Shown here: piece after piece, positions 15,693-26,824 of the stretch | Layout of the letters: the number at the start of each line of letters is the position of its first letter | Position numbering within the stretch: position 1 is the stretch's first letter | Source of the DNA: Gemmatimonadota bacterium | GTDB lineage: Bacteria > JAAXHH01 | Direction of reading: 5' to 3' | Length of the DNA stretch: 64,000 nucleotides | NCBI GenBank assembly: GCA_009838645.1 | Contig: VXRC01000025.1 | Span: forward strand, 19,173 to 83,172 | Translations under genes and position numbers: made by a program | Notes under the pieces: generated by a model | Told to the model about the DNA's origin: nothing | Seen by the model: only the letters and a program-made list of their open reading frames with translations | Database searches by the model: none

Positions 15693-16484
15693 ATGAAACA
15701 CGCCCGCATTCCAAAAAGCATCGGAATGGCCCTGGCGGTCTGCCTGGCCTGCCTGGCCGGCGTGGCGCTGTGGACGGCCCGCGGCAGCGGAGATTCCGGC
15801 CACGACCTCTTCCTGCGCAATGATTTTACTTTCGGCCGGGTCGTGTACCAGAACTCCGGCGGGTTCTACCGGGGATGGGGATGGGGGCGGTGGTCGGTGG
15901 ATTTCCCGTCGGCCGACGCCAACGTGATCCGCGCCCTGCGGGCCACGACCTCCCTCAAGATAAACGAACCGCAGGCCGTGGAGCTGACGGACCCCGATCT
16001 GTTCGATATTCCCTTCCTGTATATCCTGGAAGTCGGATCCTTGCAGTTCAGCCAGGAGGAAGTGGACGCCCTGCGGGAGTACCTGCTGCGCGGCGGATTC
16101 CTGATGGTGGACGATTTCCACGGATCGCGCCAGTGGGCGGTATGGGAATCGCAAATGAAGCGGGTATTTCCCGAACGCGACATCGAGGAAGTCCCCGCGG
16201 GCCACGCGATATTCCACTGCTACTACGATTTCGACGAGTATCCCCTGGTGCCCGGTACCGCGGCCCTGTGGAGACCGGGCAACTACGAGCGGGACGGTGC
16301 GTTGTACGGCCACCGGCTGCGGGGCATAACCGATGACGGCGGCAGGCTCATGGTGCTGATGAACTGGAACGCGGACCTGGGCGACGGATGGGAACACGCG
16401 GCCGATCCAGGGTACCCGCGCGCGTATTCCGTGATCGCGTACCGGCTTGCCGTGAACTACGCCATCTACGCGATGACGCACTGA
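15693..16484 (+). CDS. DUF4159-domain protein
   Basis: W..D.PSAD.N, LFDIPFLY, LREYLLRGGFLMVDDF, DLGDGWE, NYAIYAMTH. Confidence 0.8.
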   Translation: MKHARIPKSIGMALAVCLACLAGVALWTARGSGDSGHDLFLRNDFTFGRVVYQNSGGFYRGWGWGRWSVDFPSADANVIRALRATTSLKINEPQAVELTDPDLFDIPFLYILEVGSLQFSQEEVDALREYLLRGGFLMVDDFHGSRQWAVWESQMKRVFPERDIEEVPAGHAIFHCYYDFDEYPLVPGTAALWRPGNYERDGALYGHRLRGITDDGGRLMVLMNWNADLGDGWEHAADPGYPRAYSVIAYRLAVNYAIYAMTH

Positions 16485-16576
16485 GCGGCGACGGGGTGCC
16501 CGGCGGTTCGTTGGGGGGCCGCCCGGTGGCATAGCCCTGGGGGAAAGTGGATCTATGCGACCGACCTGAAGACTTG

Positions 16577-17629
16577 TTAAGCAGTTGAGGTCAGCTGCTT
16601 CAGCGCGACCGTCAATACCTCGACGGAGCGCAGGTACTCTTCCAGGACGATGTGCTCGTCCGGCGTATGGTCCAGGCTGGAGTCGCCGGGTCCGTAGGCC
16701 GCGATCGGGCACTTCCAGGCCGGTCCGACGATACACATGTCCGACGTGCCCGTCTTCTTCTTGAAGGTCGGCCGGCCGCCTTTCTGGCGGATACCCCGCA
16801 ACAGCGCCCGGATCAGCGCCGTGTTCTTAGCGGCGACCACGCCCGGCAGCCGCTGGTCGCATTCGATCTCCGCCGGGCCCGCCTGTTCCATCACGAAACC
16901 GATCAAACTTTCCAGGTCGTAACCGGGCGGCACGCGCACCGAGAAGTACGCCTCGACGCCCTCGGTCAATCCCTCGTCCGTAGTGTTGAATCGTCTCAAC
17001 TCGAGCCGGGGCGACCCGAATTCGCTTCCCGTGGCCTGGTCGGCGACGCGGGCTTGCATGGCGTTGTACAGGTCGATCGCCCGTTCGGCGGCGCGCCTGT
17101 GGTCGCCGGCGTGATGGGCGTTGGGCTGCTCGAGGCGATAGTCGAACCCCACATGGCCCTTGTACCCGATGGTGACGCTGTCCCAGCCGCTCGGTTCGCC
17201 GATGAATACGCAGTCGGGACGCATGCGGTCCACCAGGTGGCGGGCGCCCTTCGAGGTGGGGCATTCCTCCTCCACGGCGCCGACGACGGTGATCCGGCCG
17301 CCGGTGGTTTCCGTGAGCCGGCTCGCGGCGGCGGCGAAGGCGGCCAGGGGACCCTTGGCGTCCACCGTGCCGCGGCCGTAGAGCCTGCCCGATTCCTCCC
17401 GGATAGGAACGATCCCGGGTACCGTGTCAATATGCCCGATCAGGGCAATGTGCGGTTCGCCGCGGCCAATCTCGCCCACCGCGTTCCCGGCCTCGTCCAC
17501 GCGGGCGCGGAGGCCCCGACGATCCATGGCGTCCACCAGGCAGGAAACGGCCTCGCCCTCCTGCGTGGAAGGGCTGTACCGCTCGACCAGGTCCCGCAGC
17601 AGCGCGATGTCGTCACGGGCGGTACTCAT
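16577..17629 (-). CDS. lysK: [LysW]-lysine hydrolase (M20 family)
   Basis: LIGHIDTVPG, GRGTVDAKG, VEEE, GTSDM, YGPGDSSLDHTPDE; last gene of the LysW operon. Confidence 0.92.
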   Translation of the reverse strand: MSTARDDIALLRDLVERYSPSTQEGEAVSCLVDAMDRRGLRARVDEAGNAVGEIGRGEPHIALIGHIDTVPGIVPIREESGRLYGRGTVDAKGPLAAFAAAASRLTETTGGRITVVGAVEEECPTSKGARHLVDRMRPDCVFIGEPSGWDSVTIGYKGHVGFDYRLEQPNAHHAGDHRRAAERAIDLYNAMQARVADQATGSEFGSPRLELRRFNTTDEGLTEGVEAYFSVRVPPGYDLESLIGFVMEQAGPAEIECDQRLPGVVAAKNTALIRALLRGIRQKGGRPTFKKKTGTSDMCIVGPAWKCPIAAYGPGDSSLDHTPDEHIVLEEYLRSVEVLTVALKQLTSTA

Positions 17630-18799
17630 TTAAGCCTCCAACGATCCCAGCACCGCGCCCACGGTCTCTACGACCCGGTCGATCTCCTCCCTGGTAATCG
17701 ACAGGGGCGGGAGGAAGCGCAGCACCGTGTTGCCCGCGGGCAGGGCCATCACGCCGCGTTCCATGAGTCCGCGGAGGACGGGGGTGACCCGTCCCTTCAT
17801 CTCGACGCCGATGATCAGGCCCATGCCCCTGATCTCCCGGACGAAAGGCGCGTCCAGTGCCGCGAGGGCATCCCGGAAATACGCGCCGTTCTCCCGGGCG
17901 TTCTCGATGAGTCCTTCCTCCTCCAGCACGCGCAGCGTGGCCAGGCCGGCCGCGCAGACCACCGGACCGCCACCGAAGGTGTTGCCGTGGGACATGGCGG
18001 GGACGCCCCGGACCGTTTCGGCGCAGAGCGTCGCGCCCACGGGCAGGCCGCCGGCCATGGCCTTGGCCAGGCAGAGCATGTCCGGCCGGAGATCCTGGTG
18101 CTCGCAGGCGAACATGGCACCGGTCCGGCCGAATCCGGTCTGCACTTCGTCCACGATGAACAGGGCGCCGCGCTCCCGGCACAGGCCCGCCACGCGGTTC
18201 AGATACGCGCCGTCGCCGATGCGGACGCCGCCCTCGCCCTGCACCGCTTCCAGGATCACCGCCGCCGTCCCGTCGCCGATGGATTCCTCCATGGCGGAGG
18301 CATCGTTGTATTTCACGTGGGTGAAACCGGGAACGAGGGGTTCGAAGGGAGCGCGGTACTTGGGGTTCCAGGTCGCGCTCAGGGCCCCGAAGGTACGTCC
18401 GTGAAATCCGCGCTGGGCCGCGATGATGCCGGTCCGCCCCGTGGCGACACGGGCGAATTTAAGCGCCGCCTCCACCGCCTCCGTACCCGAATTGCAAAGG
18501 AAGAGCCGGTCCAGCCCCTCCGGGGCGACCCGGGTCAGGGCCGTGGCCAGTTCCGCCCGGAGGTCGTTGTAGAAGGTGTCTGGACAGATCACGAGCCGCT
18601 CCGCCTGCCGCGCGATCGCCTCCGTCACGGCCGGATGGCAGTGGCCTACGTTGGCCGTGCCGATCCCGCCGATGCAATCGATGTACTCCTTGCCGTCACT
18701 GTCCCAGAGGCGGGCGCCGCTGCCCCGGACGATCACCACGTCCCGCTTGGGCAGAATGCCCATCGACGCCTGGTTTTCCAGAGCCTGGTAGTCAGTCAT
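17630..18799 (-). CDS. lysJ: [LysW]-aminoadipate semialdehyde transaminase (class III)
   Basis: YIDCIGGIG, CNSGTEAVE, FHGRT, DEVQTGFGRTG, LAKAMAGG; start re-called at MTDYQALE. Confidence 0.9.
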   Translation of the reverse strand: MTDYQALENQASMGILPKRDVVIVRGSGARLWDSDGKEYIDCIGGIGTANVGHCHPAVTEAIARQAERLVICPDTFYNDLRAELATALTRVAPEGLDRLFLCNSGTEAVEAALKFARVATGRTGIIAAQRGFHGRTFGALSATWNPKYRAPFEPLVPGFTHVKYNDASAMEESIGDGTAAVILEAVQGEGGVRIGDGAYLNRVAGLCRERGALFIVDEVQTGFGRTGAMFACEHQDLRPDMLCLAKAMAGGLPVGATLCAETVRGVPAMSHGNTFGGGPVVCAAGLATLRVLEEEGLIENARENGAYFRDALAALDAPFVREIRGMGLIIGVEMKGRVTPVLRGLMERGVMALPAGNTVLRFLPPLSITREEIDRVVETVGAVLGSLEA

Positions 18800-18942
18800 T
18801 TTTCGCTCCGATTTACGATTTCGTATCGCCTCGAGTCGTCCTGCGCGGTGCGCTGGGTTCCCCGGATGGCCGCTTCGTTCGGCCGCCGCTGTCCGATCAT
18901 TCTTCTCCGCGGCCACAACGCGATCGTTCTGTCCGGCGGCCG

Positions 18943-19740
18943 CTACCCGATCACCGTGCCCGCGCCGCGCAGGGCCGCCGTGACCGGTTCGGGTATCCGG
19001 CCGTCCCCCAGGATCACCTGGTCCACGCCGACCTCCAGCGCCTCCTTCGCGCCGAGCAGCTTCTTCTTCATGCGGTCCCTGGCGTGGGTCGCGATCGCTT
19101 CGTCGATTTCGTCCCGGGATATCCGGGGTATCAGTGTCTCCTCGTCATCCGCATCCTCCAGGAACCCCGGCGTGTTGGAGAGGATGACCAGCCGTTCCGC
19201 GCCGAGGGCGTCGGCGATCACGGCGGCCGCGCGGTCCCCGTCAATGTTGATCATCTCGCCTTCGTAGCTGATGGCGGGGGGACTGACGACGGGCAGATAA
19301 CCCTGGTCGAGGAGCGTGGTCAGGAGCGACACGTTCGCCCTTTCGACCCGGCCGGTGTAGTCGTCCCGCAGGATCTTCGTCCTGCCGTCCTCCACGATGC
19401 GGATATTGGGTTTCCGGCGGCCCTCGAGCAGGCGGCCGTCCACGCCGCTCAGGCCGACGGCGTTGACCCCGAGCTGCTGCAGTTTCTCGACGATGCGGGT
19501 GTTGCGCTTTCCGCAGTACACCATGGTGAAGATGTCCAGTGTTTCCTGATCGGTGACCCGGCTCGTGTATCCCGACGGCGACGTGACCATGCGGGGCGGC
19601 TTGCCCAGCTGCTCGGAGATCTGGTTCAATTCGTCGGAAGCGCCGTGCACCAGCACCAGCGGCTCGGTCTGCCGGGCGAGGTCTTCCAGGACGTAATCCA
19701 GGTTGATGCCCCGGCTTCCGCCCGTCTTCACCACGATCAT
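18943..19740 (-). CDS. lysZ: [LysW]-aminoadipate kinase
   Basis: VVKTGGS, LVHGAS, SPSGYTSRVTD, NIDGDRAAA. Confidence 0.92.
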   Translation of the reverse strand: MIVVKTGGSRGINLDYVLEDLARQTEPLVLVHGASDELNQISEQLGKPPRMVTSPSGYTSRVTDQETLDIFTMVYCGKRNTRIVEKLQQLGVNAVGLSGVDGRLLEGRRKPNIRIVEDGRTKILRDDYTGRVERANVSLLTTLLDQGYLPVVSPPAISYEGEMINIDGDRAAAVIADALGAERLVILSNTPGFLEDADDEETLIPRISRDEIDEAIATHARDRMKKKLLGAKEALEVGVDQVILGDGRIPEPVTAALRGAGTVIG

Positions 19741-21008
19741 TCAGCATTCCCTTCCTTAACGGCGGTCACGGCCTCCGGCCGGGGCACGGACGCCTGGGTG
19801 CTGTCCGCCATGCGCCGGATCATCACGACGCCGTTTCTCACCTCTTCTTCGCCGAGGATCAGGGTATAGGCGGCGCCGAGGCGGTCGGCCTGTCTCATCT
19901 GGGCCTTCAGGCTCCGGTCCTCCCACAGTGCCGTCGCGCCTACGCCGGCCGCGCGCAGCTCCTGCGCCAGGACCACCGCGGCAGACTTGGCCTCCGCACC
20001 GAGATAGGCGACGAATACCCGCGGCTTCGGCACCCCGGGAGGCTCGATCCCCTCCTGCTTCATCGTGAGTATGATGCGTTCGATGCCCGAGGCGAATCCG
20101 ATCGCCGGCGTCTCGGGACCGCCGACCATGCCGATCAGCCCGTCGTAGCGGCCGCCGCCGCATACCGCGTTCTGCGCCCCGATGCCCTCGGCCCAAACCT
20201 CGAACACGGTCTTCGTATAGTAGTCGAAACCCCGCACCAGGCGATGGTTGACCTGGTAGGGCCGCCCCAGGTCGTCCAGGTAGGACCTCAACTTGCCGAA
20301 GTGGCTTTCGCATTCGTCGCACAGGGAATCCGCGATCCGCGGCGCTTCGTCCGCGATCGCGCGGCAGGTCTCGTTCTTGCAGTCCAGCAGCCGGAGCGGG
20401 TTCTGCTCGTAGCGGCGCGCGCATTCGCCGCAGATCCCGTCCAGGCGCTCCGCGTACCAGGCCCGCAGCGTTTCGATGTATCCCGGACGGCACGCCGGGC
20501 ACCCCGTGCTGTTCACCTGGAAGGACAGGTTCTTGATGCCGACCGCTTCGTAGATCTGCCAGGCGACCTGCATGACCTCGAGATCGATTGCCGGGTCCTG
20601 GCTGCCCAGCACTTCCACGTCGATCTGGTAGAACTGGCGGTACCGGCCCGCCTGGGGACGCTCGTACCGGAAGGCCGGACCGATGGTGAAGAGCCGCAGG
20701 GGCTGGGGCCGGCCGTGCAGCTTGCGCTCCGCGTAGGCCCGGCAGATCCCGGCGGTGAACTCGGGGCGCAGGGTCATTCGCTCCTCGTTGCGGTCGAGGA
20801 AGGTGTACATCTCTTTCTCGACGATGTCGGTGGATTCGCCGACGCTCCGTTCGAAGAGGCCGGTCTGCTCGAAGACCGGCACGTCGATCTGCTCGTAGCC
20901 GAAGAGTTCGCAGACCCGGCGCGTGGTCTCGGTGACGTGGCGCCAGTGGGCCTGGTCTTCGGGCAGGATGTCGTAGGTGCCTCTCGGTGCCCTGTAGTTC
21001 ATATTCAT
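19737..21008 (-). CDS. hisS: Histidine--tRNA ligase
   Basis: APRGTYD, LRPEFTA, FRYERPQAGRYRQFYQ, LVRGFDYY, GGGRYDGL, anticodon-binding domain present (so not HisZ); ATGA overlap with lysZ. Confidence 0.96.
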   Translation of the reverse strand: MNMNYRAPRGTYDILPEDQAHWRHVTETTRRVCELFGYEQIDVPVFEQTGLFERSVGESTDIVEKEMYTFLDRNEERMTLRPEFTAGICRAYAERKLHGRPQPLRLFTIGPAFRYERPQAGRYRQFYQIDVEVLGSQDPAIDLEVMQVAWQIYEAVGIKNLSFQVNSTGCPACRPGYIETLRAWYAERLDGICGECARRYEQNPLRLLDCKNETCRAIADEAPRIADSLCDECESHFGKLRSYLDDLGRPYQVNHRLVRGFDYYTKTVFEVWAEGIGAQNAVCGGGRYDGLIGMVGGPETPAIGFASGIERIILTMKQEGIEPPGVPKPRVFVAYLGAEAKSAAVVLAQELRAAGVGATALWEDRSLKAQMRQADRLGAAYTLILGEEEVRNGVVMIRRMADSTQASVPRPEAVTAVKEGNAE

Positions 21009-21021
21009 CCTATACCGGGTG

Positions 21022-22065
21022 CTAGACCGGGTGGAGGCCCGGAAACTCCAGGCCCGTCCGCTCGTCCCACCCGTGCATGATGTTGAGGGCCTGCACGGCC
21101 TGTCCGGCCGCGCCCTTGACCAGGTTGTCCAGCGCGCCCATGACCACGACCCGGTCGCTGTGCTCGTCGCGCTCGAACCCGATGTCGCAGTAATTGGTCC
21201 CCGCGAGAAACTTCGGATCGGGATACCGGAACACGCCCTGGCGTTCCTTGATGATGCGGATGAAGGGTTCTTTCTCGTAGGCTTCCCGGTAGATTCCCCA
21301 GATATCCCTGTCGGACAGATTGCCGTTTGCGAAAGCGTGCGTGGTCATCAGGATGCCGCGCACCAGTTCGATGGCCGTCGCCGAGAAATGGACCCTGGGC
21401 GCCTGCTCGCCGAAGGTGAGCTCCTGCACGATCTCCGCCGTGTGGCGATGGCCCGTGGGCTTGAAGGACCGCACGGCCCCGCTGCGGTCCGGGTGATGGG
21501 TGGACCGGTCGGCCCGGTGTCCCGCCGCGGAGGAGCCGATCTTGCCCTCCATGAACAGCCGGGAGGGGTCGACGGCGCCGGCCCTGACGAGGGGCGCCAG
21601 CGACAGGATCGCCGTGGCGGCCAGGCACCCGGTGCACGCGACGCATTCGGCGTCCCTGATCTCGTCCCGGTAGAGTTCGGCCAGGCCATACACGAACCGG
21701 CCAAGGACGCCGGGATGGGCATGGGCATGTCCGTACCAGGTCGGATAGTCCGCCGGATCGCGCAGGCGGAAGTCCGCGCTCAGGTCGATGACGCGGGCCG
21801 ACAGGCCGGAGAAGTCGTCCCATCTCTTCATCGCCTCCCCGTGGGGCAGGCACAGGCACAGGACGTCGCAGGGCTCGAGGTCGGCCAAGGCGCCGAACTT
21901 GAGGTCCGTGACCCTCCGAAGGTTCGGATGGGACCGGCCGACGGGCTTGCCCGCGAGCGATTCCGACGTCACCTGCCCGATTTCGATTTCCGGGTGGAAC
22001 AGGAGCAGGCGGAGCAGTTCCCCACCGCCGTATCCGGACGCGCCGGCGATAGACACCTTGATCAT
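21022..22065 (-). CDS. lysY: [LysW]-aminoadipyl-phosphate reductase (ArgC family)
   Basis: [42 protein letters not shown]. Confidence 0.92.
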
Positions 22066-22901
22066 GATTGGGCCACCTTTACCAGATAATCGATGATTCG
22101 GCCGGGAATGTCCACGCCCGTCGGTTGTATGCTGTTCCGGAATTCCATGGTGTAGTTGACCTCGTTGACCAGGATCCCGTCCGGCGATTCCAGCAGGTCG
22201 ACGGCCACCACGCCGCCACCCACCGCTTCCGCGGCGCGGGCGGAAAGCATCCCCACGTCACCCTCCACGGGACAGTCGGCCGTCGTCCCGCCCAGGGCGG
22301 TGTTGGTCTTCCAGTGGTCCGAGTACCGGTAGACGGCGCAGATGGTCTCGCCGTCGACCACGAAGGATCGGATATCGCGGCCGGGCTTCTCCACGTACTC
22401 CTGGATGTAGATCACCGAATGCTGATAGGACCCCAGCGTCTCCTTGTGCTCGAGCACCGCTTCGGCGGCATGACGGTCGTTGACCCGCGCGATGAGGCGC
22501 CCCCACGAACCGATGGGCGGCTTGACCACGACGGGATAGCCCATGGATTCCATTTCCTCCAGGGCCGACTCGGCGGTAAACGCGACGCGGGCCTTCGGCG
22601 TGGGCACCCCGTGGTCCACCAGCGCCATGGTCGTCAGGAACTTGTTCCCGCACACGCGGGCCACCTCGTAGTTGTTGACGGTCCTGATGCCGCCGGCGTT
22701 GAGTATCTTCAGCGAGTTGAGGGCCCTGGAATGGTTGATGCACCGCTCGAGTATGACGTCGTGGTCGTACCGGTGGTTCTCCAGGTCGAAGACGATGCGC
22801 CGGTCGTCCAGCCGGTCGAAGACGATACCCCGTTTCGCCGCGGCCTCGAAGAGCATCTTCTGTTCCGTGGAAACGATGGACAGCAGCATGCCGATCTTCA
22901 C
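22062..22901 (-). CDS. lysX: Alpha-aminoadipate--LysW ligase (RimK ATP-grasp), catalytically intact copy
   Basis: [46 protein letters not shown]. Confidence 0.92.
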
Positions 22902-23752
22902 GAGTTGCGTCCCCCCTGTGCCACCGTGTCCGCCACGTAGTCCATGATCTTCCCCGGTATATTGACGCCGGTGACGTCCGATGCGTCCGAAAGCCCGGAC
23001 GGCGGGCCCATCTCCTGTACGAACCAGGCATCCTTCGTGCGAACCATGTCCACCACCGCGATTCCGCCGCCGATCGCCCGGACGGCTGCGACCGCCAGGT
23101 CGTTCAGTTCCTCCGTGACGGGCTCCTGCTTCATCAGGCCGCCGGCGGTGATGGTCCCGATCCAGTGGTGGGTCAGCACCGATACGGCGGCCACCGTCTC
23201 GTCGCCGACCACGTACGCCCTGATGTCGTGTCCGGGCGAATCGATGTGCTTTTGCATGAAGAAGATGGAGTGGTGATAGGCGCCGAGGATGCGTTTGTGC
23301 TCCAGGACCGTCGCCGCCGTATACTTGTCCCCGATCCGGGAAACGAGCTGGCCCTCGGGACCCTCCACGGGCCGGAGGACGACCGGGTACCCCATGTCCT
23401 CCATGGCTTCCAGGGCGGAACGCGGCGTATACGCCACGCGCACTTCCGGCACCGGCACCCCGTTCTCCCGCAAGGCCAGGGACGTCAGCAGCCGGTTCCC
23501 GTACGTCTCCACCACCGGCTGGCGGTTCACCGTCGGAATGCCCCAGTGGTCGAAGACGGTCAGCGCGTACACGGCGCGATGGTGATCGATACAGCGCTCC
23601 AGGACCACGTCCAGGTCCATATGACGCCGATCCAGTTCGAAGACCAGCCGCGTGTTGTCGATCGTCGTCACGTCGATGCCGCGGCGGCCCGCCTCGGCGA
23701 TCAACCGCTTCTCGTCCTTCCTGATACGCGACAGCACGATGCCCAATTCCAT
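22898..23752 (-). CDS. LysX/RimK-like paralog with degenerate ATP-grasp motifs
   Basis: Colinear with lysX but [21 protein letters not shown] and QEMGPP replace the catalytic motifs; start re-called at MELGIV (GGAGG upstream). Confidence 0.82.
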
Positions 23753-23831
23753 TAATTCCACGTCCTCCGGGTATCCCGCGTCCTTTCGGATATCCCGCGT
23801 TCCTTGCGCCACATGCAATGGCGCCGAATGC

Positions 23832-23878
23832 AAAAAAAAGAGCCGGCCTCTTCGCTCAATCGAAGAGGAACACGGCTC
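23832..23878 (-). terminator. Rho-independent terminator/attenuator upstream of lysX'
   Basis: Minus strand GAGCCG-tgtt-CCTCTTCG-attgag-CGAAGAGG-c-CGGCTC followed by T8. Confidence 0.88.
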
Positions 23879-23916
23879 CCAACTGTTCCCGTGGTCCCGT
23901 AATCCCTTTCGCAGGA

Positions 23917-23994
23917 TTACCGAGGGGCCCGATGAGCGGACGAACGCAAATCACAATCATGTTTACCATGTTTATGTTTCATTCGTTTGCTCAT
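23917..23994 (-). CDS. Putative Lys/His leader peptide MSKRMKHKHGKHDCDLRSSAHRAPR (25 aa)
   Basis: AAGGA 7 nt before ATG; four Lys (AAA) and four His (CAT) codons; followed by hairpins and a terminator. Confidence 0.7.
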   Translation of the reverse strand: MSKRMKHKHGKHDCDLRSSAHRAPR

Positions 23995-24022
23995 CGTGAT
24001 TTCCTTCCATCCGTCCGCGGGC

Positions 24023-24190
24023 TTACTCTCCCCAGTCTTCCTCTTCTTCCGGTGCCAGCGCGAACTCCAGCGGGTCTACGCTGACCACTTCCAATTCCGC
24101 GCCGCACTCCGGGCACGTGATGATTTCGCCAACCACGACATCATAATCCAGGGTGATCTCGGCGCCACATTCCGGGCAAATCCCGCTCAT
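24023..24190 (-). CDS. lysW: Amino-group carrier protein LysW (55 aa; not in ORF track)
   Basis: [55 protein letters not shown]: two CPEC motifs and C-terminal EDWGE. Confidence 0.97.
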
Positions 24191-24288
24191 GATACCCCCG
24201 TTTTACACAAATGCAGCCTTGGAACGCATCTTTTTCGAAGGTCCATTCACCCTACGGGGAAGGCCTTTCCTCCTCAAAGAACGGACGC

Positions 24289-24316
24289 AATATAGGGTGC
24301 GCGCTAAGGGTGTCAA
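24289..24316 (-). promoter_or_regulatory. sigma70 promoter of the lysW operon
   Basis: Minus strand TTGACA(24316-24311)-16 nt-TATATT(24294-24289). Confidence 0.65.
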
Positions 24317-24325
24317 GCGCTTTTT

Positions 24326-26824
24326 TCAACCCTCCTCGTCGCCGTCCGATCCGGGTGATTCGTCCGTCTCGGAAGTCGCCGGATCGTCCTCTTCGTCGCC
24401 CGGCGTAATCCTGGAAACATCGATCACCCGGTCCCCCTCGCCCAGGTTGATGAGCCGGACGCCCTGAGTGTTCCGGCCGATGGGGCGCAGGTCGCGGACC
24501 GGCAGGCGTATGATGAGGCCGTTCGTGGTAATGATCATCAGCTCGTCTTCGTCGGAGACCGCGTGAATCGACACGACGGGGCCGTTGCGTTCGCTGGTGC
24601 GTATGTTGCTCACGCCCTTGCTGTGGCGGCGGGTCAGCCGGTAGTTCTCGATGTCCGTCCGCTTCCCGTAGCCGTTCTCCGTGACGGACAGCAGCGTGGT
24701 GTCCCGATCCGACGCCAGCATGCCCACGACCCGGTCGCCTTCGCCGAGGCGTATGCCCCGCACCCCCTGAGCGCCGCGGCCCATCGTCCGGACGTCGCTC
24801 TCGTGGAAGCGGACGGCCTGGCCGTTCTGGCTGGCGATGACGATGTCGTTGTCGCCGTCGGTCAGCAGGGCCTCGATGAGGGCGTCGCCCTCGAGGATGT
24901 TCAGCGCCACGATGCCGTTCCGCCGGGGATTCCCATAGGCCGACAGCACGGTTTTCTTAACCAGGCCACCCCGCGTCACCATCAGGATATAATGCTCGTC
25001 GTCGAAGTTCCTGATCGGCAGGAAGGCCGCGATGCTCTCTCCTTGGTCGAGCTGCAGCAGGTTGACGACGGCCTTGCCGCGGGCGGTGCGGCCGGCTTCG
25101 GGGATCTCCCACACCTTGAGCCAGTAGCATTTGCCGCGGTTCGTGAAGAACAGGATGTAGGAGTGGGTCGAGGCGGAGAAGAGGTGCTCGACGAAATCCT
25201 CTTCCCGGGTCTTCATGCCGGTGATCCCCTTGCCGCCGCGGTTCTGGCTGCGGTAGGTGTCCATGGGCAGGCGCTTGACGTAGCCGGCGTGAGATATGGT
25301 GATGACCATTTCCTCGTCGGCGATCAGGTCCTCGATGCTGAGATCGCCCTCGATGTCGATCAGCTCGGTCCGCCGTTCGTCGCCGTAGCGCTCCTTCAGG
25401 TCGATCATCTCGTCCTTGATGATCTGCATCCGCCGTTCCAGGCGCGAGAGGATGTCCCGGTAATCGGCGATCCGCGCGACCAGCTCTTCGTATTCTTCCT
25501 CCAGCTTGTCTCGTTCCAGCCCGGTCAGGCGCTGCAGGCGCATGTCCAGGATGGCCTCGACCTGGGCGCGGGACAGGGCGAACTCGTCTCCCAGGACCTC
25601 CATGGCCTCCTCGCCGGTATGCGATCCGCGGATGACTTCGATCACGCGGTCCACGTTGTCCAGCGCGACGCGCAGGCCTTCCACGATATGAGCCCGCTGC
25701 TCGGCTTTCTCGAGGTCGAAGGTGGTCCGGCGCACCAGCACCTCGTGACGGTGGTCGATGAAGTGCTGGATGCACTCCTTGATGTTCAGGACCCGGGGCC
25801 GCCCGTCCACGAGCGCCAGCATGGTGACGCCGATGGTGGTCTCCAGCGGCGTCATCTTGAAGAGGTGGTTGAGCACGATGTTGCCCGGGATGTCCCGCCG
25901 CACGTCGATGGCGATGCGCATGCCCGACCGGTCCGACTCGTCCCGTATGTCGGTAATGCCCAGGATCTGCTTCTCCCGGACGAGGTCCGCGATCTTCTCG
26001 ATCAGGCTGGACTTGTTGACCTTGTAGGGGATCTCCGTGACGACGATGGTTTCCTTCTCGCTTTGCTCGTGCACCTCGATCGTCGTGCGGGCGCGCACCT
26101 TGATCTTCCCGCGGCCGGTGTGGAAATACTCGTTGATCGCGTTGCGGCCGTAGATGATGGCGCCGGTGGCGAAATCGGGTCCCTGGATGTGCGCGGCGAG
26201 CTCCCCGATCGTGATTTCCGGGTGGTCGATCACCGCCACGATACCGTCCACCACTTCGCCGAGGTTATGGGAAGGGAGGTTGGAGGCCATGCCCACGCCG
26301 ATGCCGAGCGAGCCGTTGCAGAGCAGGTTGGGGAACTTGCCCGGCAGCACGGTCGGCTCGTCTTTCGACTCGTCGTAGTTGGGCATGAAATCGACCGTGT
26401 TCTTGTCTATATCCTCCATCATCTCGATGGCCAGGCGGGACATCCGCGATTCGGTGTACCGCATGGCGCCCGGCGGATCGCCGTCGACGGATCCGAAATT
26501 GCCCTGGCCGAAGACCATGGGGTAGCGCATGCTGAAGGGCTGGGCCATCCGCGCGAGGGTATCGTACACGGCCAGGTCGCCATGGGGGTGGTAGTCCCCG
26601 ATCGTCTGGCCGACGATCTTGGCGCACTTCCGCGTGGGCCGTCCCGGCGTGAGGTTCAGGTCGCGCATCGCCACGAGAATGCGCCGCTGGGACGGCTTGA
26701 ACCCGTCACGGACGTCCGGGATCGCCCGGGACAGGTTCACGCTCATGGAGAAGTCGAGATAGGAACTCTTCATCTCGTCTTCGATGAAGATCGGCTGGAT
26801 GTTGTCGTGTTGTTCTACCGCCAT
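24326..26824 (-). CDS. gyrA: DNA gyrase subunit A
   Basis: RAIPDVRDGFKP, YHPHGD, AMRYTE, GyrA-box QNRGGKG, six-blade C-terminal domain. Confidence 0.97.
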   Translation of the reverse strand: MAVEQHDNIQPIFIEDEMKSSYLDFSMSVNLSRAIPDVRDGFKPSQRRILVAMRDLNLTPGRPTRKCAKIVGQTIGDYHPHGDLAVYDTLARMAQPFSMRYPMVFGQGNFGSVDGDPPGAMRYTESRMSRLAIEMMEDIDKNTVDFMPNYDESKDEPTVLPGKFPNLLCNGSLGIGVGMASNLPSHNLGEVVDGIVAVIDHPEITIGELAAHIQGPDFATGAIIYGRNAINEYFHTGRGKIKVRARTTIEVHEQSEKETIVVTEIPYKVNKSSLIEKIADLVREKQILGITDIRDESDRSGMRIAIDVRRDIPGNIVLNHLFKMTPLETTIGVTMLALVDGRPRVLNIKECIQHFIDHRHEVLVRRTTFDLEKAEQRAHIVEGLRVALDNVDRVIEVIRGSHTGEEAMEVLGDEFALSRAQVEAILDMRLQRLTGLERDKLEEEYEELVARIADYRDILSRLERRMQIIKDEMIDLKERYGDERRTELIDIEGDLSIEDLIADEEMVITISHAGYVKRLPMDTYRSQNRGGKGITGMKTREEDFVEHLFSASTHSYILFFTNRGKCYWLKVWEIPEAGRTARGKAVVNLLQLDQGESIAAFLPIRNFDDEHYILMVTRGGLVKKTVLSAYGNPRRNGIVALNILEGDALIEALLTDGDNDIVIASQNGQAVRFHESDVRTMGRGAQGVRGIRLGEGDRVVGMLASDRDTTLLSVTENGYGKRTDIENYRLTRRHSKGVSNIRTSERNGPVVSIHAVSDEDELMIITTNGLIIRLPVRDLRPIGRNTQGVRLINLGEGDRVIDVSRITPGDEEDDPATSETDESPGSDGDEEG

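Follow-up and report, generated by a model that had tools for sequence, protein, structure and literature searches.

We examined a 64,000-nucleotide stretch of the genome of an uncultured marine Gemmatimonadota bacterium (JAAXHH01; GenBank assembly GCA_009838645.1, contig VXRC01000025.1, forward-strand positions 19,173 to 83,172), hereafter called the window, which carries a lysine biosynthesis operon built around the amino-group carrier protein LysW. Two LysX-family genes stand in tandem within this operon. The first, here called XA, is a degenerate LysX paralog and a candidate pseudoenzyme, while the second, called XB, is an intact LysX. All coordinates are positions within the window, and the operon lies entirely on the minus strand, with the order lysW, leader/attenuator, XA, XB, lysY, hisS, lysZ, lysJ, lysK (Table 1). 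A spacer of 270 nt separates lysW from XA. The stop codon of XA and the GTG start of XB overlap by 4 nt (GTGA), and the Shine-Dalgarno sequence of XB is located within the C-terminal codons of XA; through this arrangement, XB is translationally coupled to XA. An earlier reading of the window, made from its letters and open reading frames (ORFs) alone and referred to below as the sequence-only reading, had proposed that XA and XB form an obligate heteromer or that XA is a lysine-sensing regulatory subunit, and the coordinates, strand, overlap, and peptides that it quoted were all correct. lysW is present in one copy genome-wide by tblastn, which also found no second carrier protein in the genome. 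Because lysA (diaminopimelate decarboxylase) was not detected in this 97% complete genome, the LysW/aminoadipate route is presumably the only lysine pathway of the organism.

Table 1. Features of the LysW operon, listed in the direction of transcription
Feature	Position	Strand	Details
lysW	24023..24190	-	Amino-group carrier protein with C-terminal EEEEDWGE tail; TIGR01206 75.7 bits, above cut-off
Leader ORF (peptide MSKRMKHKHGKHDCDLRSSAHRAPR, then stop)	23917..23994	-	Between lysW and XA; rich in Lys and His codons
Terminator-like hairpin, GAGCCG..CCUCUUCG-AUUGAG-CGAAGAGGCCGGCUC, then U8	23832..23890	-	Presumed attenuator terminator upstream of XA
XA, degenerate LysX paralog, candidate pseudoenzyme	22898..23752	-	284 aa; TIGR02144 238.3 bits, cut-off 275.6
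XB, intact LysX	22062..22901	-	279 aa; GTG start; TIGR02144 324.2 bits, above cut-off
lysY, ArgC family reductase	21022..22065	-	TIGR01850 379 bits; overlaps XB stop
hisS	19737..21008	-	Histidyl-tRNA synthetase; TIGR00442 490 bits
lysZ, [LysW]-aminoadipate kinase	18943..19740	-	NF010659 391 bits
lysJ, aminotransferase	17630..18916	-	TIGR00707 440 bits, NF042418 454 bits; start codon uncertain
lysK, [LysW]-lysine hydrolase	16577..17629	-	NF003367 403 bits

XA and XB are 42% identical over 279 residues, and each contains the Pfam domains LysX_preATP_grasp and RimK. The best match for both is Thermus thermophilus LysX (3VPD), with E values of 7e-87 for XB and 2e-56 for XA. XB passes the equivalog cut-off of TIGR02144, whereas XA fails it, and the broader RimK-family subfamily model TIGR00768 accepts both. 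An AlphaFold2 (AF2) model of XA had a predicted template modeling score (pTM) of 0.76, and its top Foldseek matches were the LysX structures 3VPD, 1UC9, and 5K2M at template modeling (TM) scores of 0.70-0.75, with 3VPD the best (0.75). Judging from this model, XA keeps the LysX fold.

The motifs were compared in an alignment of 27 XA, 27 XB, 53 single-copy LysX of other phyla (the outgroup), T. thermophilus LysX, and Escherichia coli RimK, and residue numbers follow T. thermophilus LysX throughout. The 27 loci come from metagenome-assembled genomes (MAGs) labelled Gemmatimonadetes, Latescibacterota, or Zixibacteria. In XA, IGSWGR has become EGPE(D/G)Q (S134P, W135E, R137Q), whereas XB and all 53 outgroup sequences keep G-S-W-G-R. 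The sequence-only reading had treated this element as an ATP motif; its loss is confirmed, but the GSWGR loop of LysX is described as the motif that recognizes the EDWGE tail of LysW and not only as an ATP loop (PMC10433800). The loss of TNTAxG and the change of EVN to EMG likewise stand, while QEY to QKH, counted among the losses, is none, since Lys170 occurs in 18 of the 53 ordinary LysX. TNTARGG reads GTIxAGG in XA, with Asn202 replaced by Thr, Ser, or Pro alongside T203I and R205A/D. NEVN reads QEMG, which includes N248Q, and Asn251, which ATP-grasp enzymes conserve as a ligand of Mg, has given way to Gly or Ser in 27/27 XA. Lys129 is Arg in 23 of the 27, all in the crown group, and the basal members keep Lys. 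Further changes, beyond those listed in the sequence-only reading, are Y193S, R194V, R177H, and K89R, and the YTMEF segment is lost as well. XA does retain Asp237, Glu249, Arg180, and Gln169, together with the basic N-terminal motif SRIRKDEK. At positions conserved in at least 90% of ordinary LysX (n = 130), 36 are replaced in XA and kept by XB, compared with 5 replaced in XB, and the replacement pattern of XA is far beyond chance.

The character of the cleft has changed as well. The net charge of XA is -9.7 (XB, -5.3; ordinary LysX, -4.6); the XA cleft has lost Arg137, Arg177, Arg194, and Arg205 and has gained Glu132, Glu135, Asp136, and Asp/Glu258. Position 258, Asp or Glu in 26/27 XA, belongs to the lining of the substrate pocket at its distal end (PMC12998189). 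Published five-residue substrate signatures are F-I-T-NS for LysX, I-Y-V-GF for ArgX, and Y-I-T-NA for bifunctional enzymes (PMC12998189). The signature of XB, F-V/I-T-N-S, is of the LysX (aminoadipate) type, and that of XA, Y-V-I-D-A, fits no described type. Compared with the LysX/ArgX family as a whole (TIGR02144; PDB 3VPD, 1UC8, 5K2M, 3VPB), XA shares the fold, the length, the N-terminal pre-ATP-grasp domain, and the operon context, but it falls below the family cut-off and is without GSWGR, Asn251, Asn202, Arg194, and Arg205. The reading of XA as a pseudoenzyme is well supported.

XB is an ordinary member of the same family by its residues, its GSWGR loop, its substrate signature, and its lysW/lysYZJK neighborhood. 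Lys129, Asn202, Asp237, Glu249, and Asn251 are kept in 27/27 XB, and all of the residues for ATP, Mg, and LysW recognition are retained. Thus, the claim that XB keeps all catalytic motifs holds, although XB is not fully canonical, as its clade-specific changes include I200K and R205L. Since the active ArgX of Sulfolobus tokodaii carries R200/L205, this combination amounts to a known working variant. The other clade-specific changes are R10 to Ser/Thr and E13Q. Arg10 and Glu13 are invariant in 53/53 outgroup LysX and in the three enzymes with solved structures, those of T. thermophilus, Thermococcus kodakarensis, and S. tokodaii, and XB stands apart from all of these at both positions. The N-terminal SIVSTEQK of XB had been described as deviant, which is real for these two residues, but its Ile8 is ordinary (outgroup Arg 24, Leu 20, Ile 6, and Val 3).

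XA is stably maintained. XA and XB lie side by side in 32 of the 33 species genomes of the GTDB phylum to which the window genome belongs, a small phylum of mostly marine or sponge-associated bacteria, and these span three families; the remaining genome, 83% complete, has neither gene. The gene order lysW-XA-XB-lysY-hisS-lysZ-lysJ-lysK is identical across the 27 loci, and the XA reading frame is intact in 26 of them. The median ratio of nonsynonymous to synonymous substitution rates (dN/dS) over 221 genome pairs (Nei-Gojobori) is 0.114 for XA and 0.105 for XB, with nonsynonymous change in XA ~1.5 times that of XB. Constraint on the central (lid) domain is equal in XA and XB, relaxation in XA affects just the former catalytic loops (200-214 and 245-259), and the XA-specific residues Glu132, Lys170, Val194, and Trp245 are invariant. 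Hence, neither the dN/dS near 1 nor the patchy loss that the sequence-only reading associated with a decaying duplicate was found. It should be noted that a long-read MAG (L023:7001-7854) contains an XA ortholog with two apparent frameshifts in the first 120 nt, which may reflect either faulty assembly or a rare pseudogene.

The stem leading to XA in the tree measures 2.06 substitutions per site versus 0.40 for XB, and the history of XA reads as a burst of substitutions along the stem, with constraint thereafter. When an XA-clade profile was searched against 1.84 billion representatives, a single XA cluster scored 549 bits and all others scored ≤304 bits; XA as such is therefore confined to this lineage. 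The trees placed XA either in a polytomy or at the base beside the RimK outgroup, and the latter position is probably due to long-branch attraction. Relative to the quick free tree, the log-likelihood rose by 48 when XA and XB were constrained to form a clade and by 28 when all degenerate copies were so constrained. Because both constrained trees beat the quick free-search tree, none of the placements tried is rejected. A tandem duplication is slightly favoured as the origin of XA. We also considered XA as an ortholog of the ArgX-like second copy in relatives from the Fibrobacteres-Chlorobi-Bacteroidetes (FCB) group, for which the tree gives no support.

The explanation that we prefer, at a probability of roughly 0.55, is that XA is a catalytically dead LysX paralog which is held under purifying selection throughout the phylum and acts non-catalytically, most likely as a partner subunit of XB. 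XB would load aminoadipate onto LysW at the expense of ATP, and XA would serve the same step without catalysis. Co-assembly with XB is suggested because LysX/RimK enzymes are oligomers; RimK-family enzymes form tetramers with their substrate sites facing the core (PMC10092738). XA may also carry a ligand site, its former substrate cleft having turned from basic to acidic. Neither the acidic tail of LysW nor aminoadipate should still fit an acidic cleft, whereas a basic ligand such as lysine could be accommodated, and an acidic residue 258 would be predicted to suit it.

Several points weigh against this explanation. When the covariation of evolutionary rates was compared with that of five other operon proteins, XA-XB had the highest partial r (0.77) with three distant taxa included, but within the genus the value drops to 0.38, other neighboring pairs reach equal or higher values, and linkage confounds the comparison. 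In the AF2 model, the confidence of the central domain of XA is <50. The retention of Asp237, Glu249, Arg180, and Gln169, and of Lys129 in basal members, makes nucleotide binding or a residual or altered chemistry possible. The identity of the ligand is something that we infer purely from charge and one pocket residue. Lastly, LysX proteins that share the N-terminal change of XB occur alone: among 50%-identity representatives, P0168, P0194, P0203, P0221, and P0240 are intact family members without Arg10/Glu13, and two of these, P0203 and P0168, are the sole LysX adjoining lysW on their (short) contigs (L090, L091). This bears directly upon the argument from complementary loss in the sequence-only reading, by which two copies with opposite motif losses would form an obligate heteromer. 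XB lacks Arg10 and Glu13 and XA has both. Within our locus data set, the loss of Arg10/Glu13 is indeed confined to loci bearing XA, yet it represents one single evolutionary event, and the intact partners of other degenerate copies (L087_2, L085_2) retain both residues. Since LysX without Arg10/Glu13 stand alone beside lysW and the partners in other lineages keep both, XB may be self-sufficient. As evidence for an obligate heteromer, complementary loss is thus weak, and the heteromer does not follow in the way that had been argued.

In a bolder version of the partner-subunit explanation, XA and XB would form a hetero-oligomeric ligase in which XA is the regulatory part: lysine or another basic end product would bind in its acidified former substrate pocket and exert allosteric feedback at the step of LysW loading, much as with HisZ but by means of a duplicate of the enzyme itself, and pseudo-LysX would be a recurrent element of LysW pathways. 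We regard this version as quite unlikely. Dead paralogs do serve such roles in other systems. HisZ is a catalytically inactive paralog of histidyl-tRNA synthetase which acts as the regulatory subunit of the short-form ATP phosphoribosyltransferase, in a hetero-oligomer that conveys end-product feedback. HisZ resembles XA in being the dead copy of an enzyme, retained in amino acid biosynthesis; however, the catalytic partner of HisZ is non-homologous, whereas that of XA would be its active paralog. In formal terms, the complementary-loss idea is most closely matched by the trypanosomatid prozymes, dead paralogs that activate S-adenosylmethionine decarboxylase and deoxyhypusine synthase (PMC5201418, PMC3663545) as heteromers of an impaired catalytic subunit and a dead paralog. 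The prozymes differ in being eukaryotic and of other folds, and XB shows no clear catalytic impairment.

An unlikely contender is that XA works alone, outside any assembly with XB, as a non-catalytic binder or regulator, either holding LysW or a LysW-bound intermediate or sensing lysine or a nucleotide on behalf of some other target. The arrangement of degenerate LysX copies in other lineages speaks for it. The match list of the XA profile includes other LysX-like proteins without parts of GSWGR, Asn202, or Asn251, and these are found in the contexts lysW, P0127, LysX (L087); argG, argH, lysW, P0143, M20 hydrolase, LysX (L085); LysX, P0142, lysY (L084); and argH, lysW, P0138 (L083), in which P0127, P0143, P0142, and P0138 are the degenerate copies. 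All four have the LysX fold, keep Arg10/Glu13 and Arg180, and adjoin lysW and/or an intact LysX, but the set of residues that each has lost differs from that of XA. A degenerate copy therefore stands directly after lysW in 4/5 lineages (the window operon, L083, L085, and L087), and in L085 the M20 hydrolase gene separates it from the working LysX. XA also retains the basic N-terminal motif, which in RimK forms the lining of the belt that binds the acidic tail. On the other hand, the missing GSWGR loop and the acidic cleft of XA argue against binding of the LysW tail, and XA is tightly coupled in translation to XB and separated from lysW by the attenuator. Whichever role applies, these loci suggest that degenerate LysX copies are recurrent in the LysW clusters of unrelated lineages.

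We give slim odds to the possibility that XA is still an enzyme, which would be an ATP-grasp ligase of unusual active-site design acting upon a different substrate or acceptor. The retained residues noted above are conserved, as is the lid segment LEHKxxLGxYHHS, basal members keep Lys129, and XA resembles active RimK in its VEGxxG loop (VEGTQG in RimK) and its xPxGL segment (ASPGL in RimK). However, no XA keeps Asn251, Asn202, Arg194, or Arg205, constraint within the protein is lowest in the catalytic loops, and no second carrier protein for such a ligase was found in the genome.

That XA and XB are a Sulfolobus-like LysX/ArgX pair, one ligase for aminoadipate and one for glutamate, is very improbable and is already contradicted by the sequence. 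Two LysX-family genes do lie beside one lysW, and XA has Tyr182 and Ala259 like the bifunctional LysX/ArgX enzymes (PMC12998189). However, the genome carries a canonical argR-argC-argB-argD-argH cluster together with an N-acetyltransferase gene on another contig, so no ArgX would be needed, and XA is without the catalytic residues and the LysW-recognition motif. The sequence-only reading had preferred a pseudoenzyme to a second ligase or ArgX for XA and had set the LysX/ArgX pair aside, and on both counts our results bear it out. Sulfolobus LysX and ArgX, and loci from KSB1, Calditrichota, and Cytophagia (L053, L062, L064, L068), likewise have two LysX-family genes per LysW cluster, but neither copy in these pairs has lost any residue for catalysis or LysW recognition, and only the specificity signature differs. 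True dual-ligase pairs, being intact in both copies, thus look different from XA/XB. The KSB1, Calditrichota, and Cytophagia MAG loci (L053, L059, L062, L064, L068, L075) consist of LysX, lysY, and a second intact LysX-family gene whose product has an ArgX-like pocket (I/L182, A203, G/S258), which looks like a bacterial LysX/ArgX-type pair. In addition, a contig of GCA_902384555.1 (L092) carries, in order, homocitrate synthase, an AsnC regulator, homoaconitase, homoisocitrate dehydrogenase, lysW, LysX, ornithine carbamoyltransferase (OTCase), a second lysW, a second LysX, and lysY, i.e. two carrier/ligase pairs within one locus.

Finally, the view of XA as a decaying duplicate heading for loss, to which its faster nonsynonymous evolution and the frameshifts in L023 might point, has next to no chance of being correct, being already contradicted by the low dN/dS (0.11), the nearly universal presence and intact frame of XA across three families, and the fixation of the replaced motifs themselves (E132, K170, V194, and W245).

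The LysW route to lysine and arginine has been considered fully enumerated, consisting of LysW, X, Z, Y, J, and K. If our preferred explanation of XA as a non-catalytic LysX paralog is true, it would add a seventh, non-catalytic player to this pathway. Our literature search found no description of a LysX pseudoenzyme, including degenerate copies beside lysW; XA would represent a known kind of pairing, a dead paralog beside its enzyme, in a pathway for which no such case has been published. Within a carrier-protein pathway, a pseudo-ligase could take part in regulation, in the handling of the carrier, or in the assembly of a complex, and the question of its role may be a general one because comparable copies lie beside lysW in several unrelated lineages. 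XA/XB would also offer a clean bacterial case of a tandem duplicate becoming a pseudoenzyme.

The long spacer between lysW and XA has features of its own, as the lysW-lysX gap of the outgroup loci is just ~10-20 nt. It contains the leader ORF, whose 25 codons are kept nearly base for base in L001-L023 and which is still K/H-rich in L024. The region 23832-23994 is strongly folded (z = -5.8), and downstream of the leader ORF lie hairpins, followed by a GC stem and U8 terminator. Based upon these features, the leader looks like a dual Lys/His ribosome-mediated attenuator, which fits the content of the operon (lys genes plus hisS). An Rfam scan of 16000-25500 returned nothing relevant, and thus no riboswitch is indicated in this interval. 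Between the terminator and the start of XA (23755-23830, minus strand), there is a variable number of ~17-nt direct repeats resembling GACGCGGGATATCCGAAAG; similar repeats are absent from most close relatives and occur in some (L005, L006, L007, L021). hisS has a single tblastn match genome-wide and is therefore the only histidyl-tRNA synthetase gene, and it sits between lysY and lysZ in every related locus long enough to show it. An essential tRNA synthetase gene thereby falls under the putative attenuator of the lysine operon.

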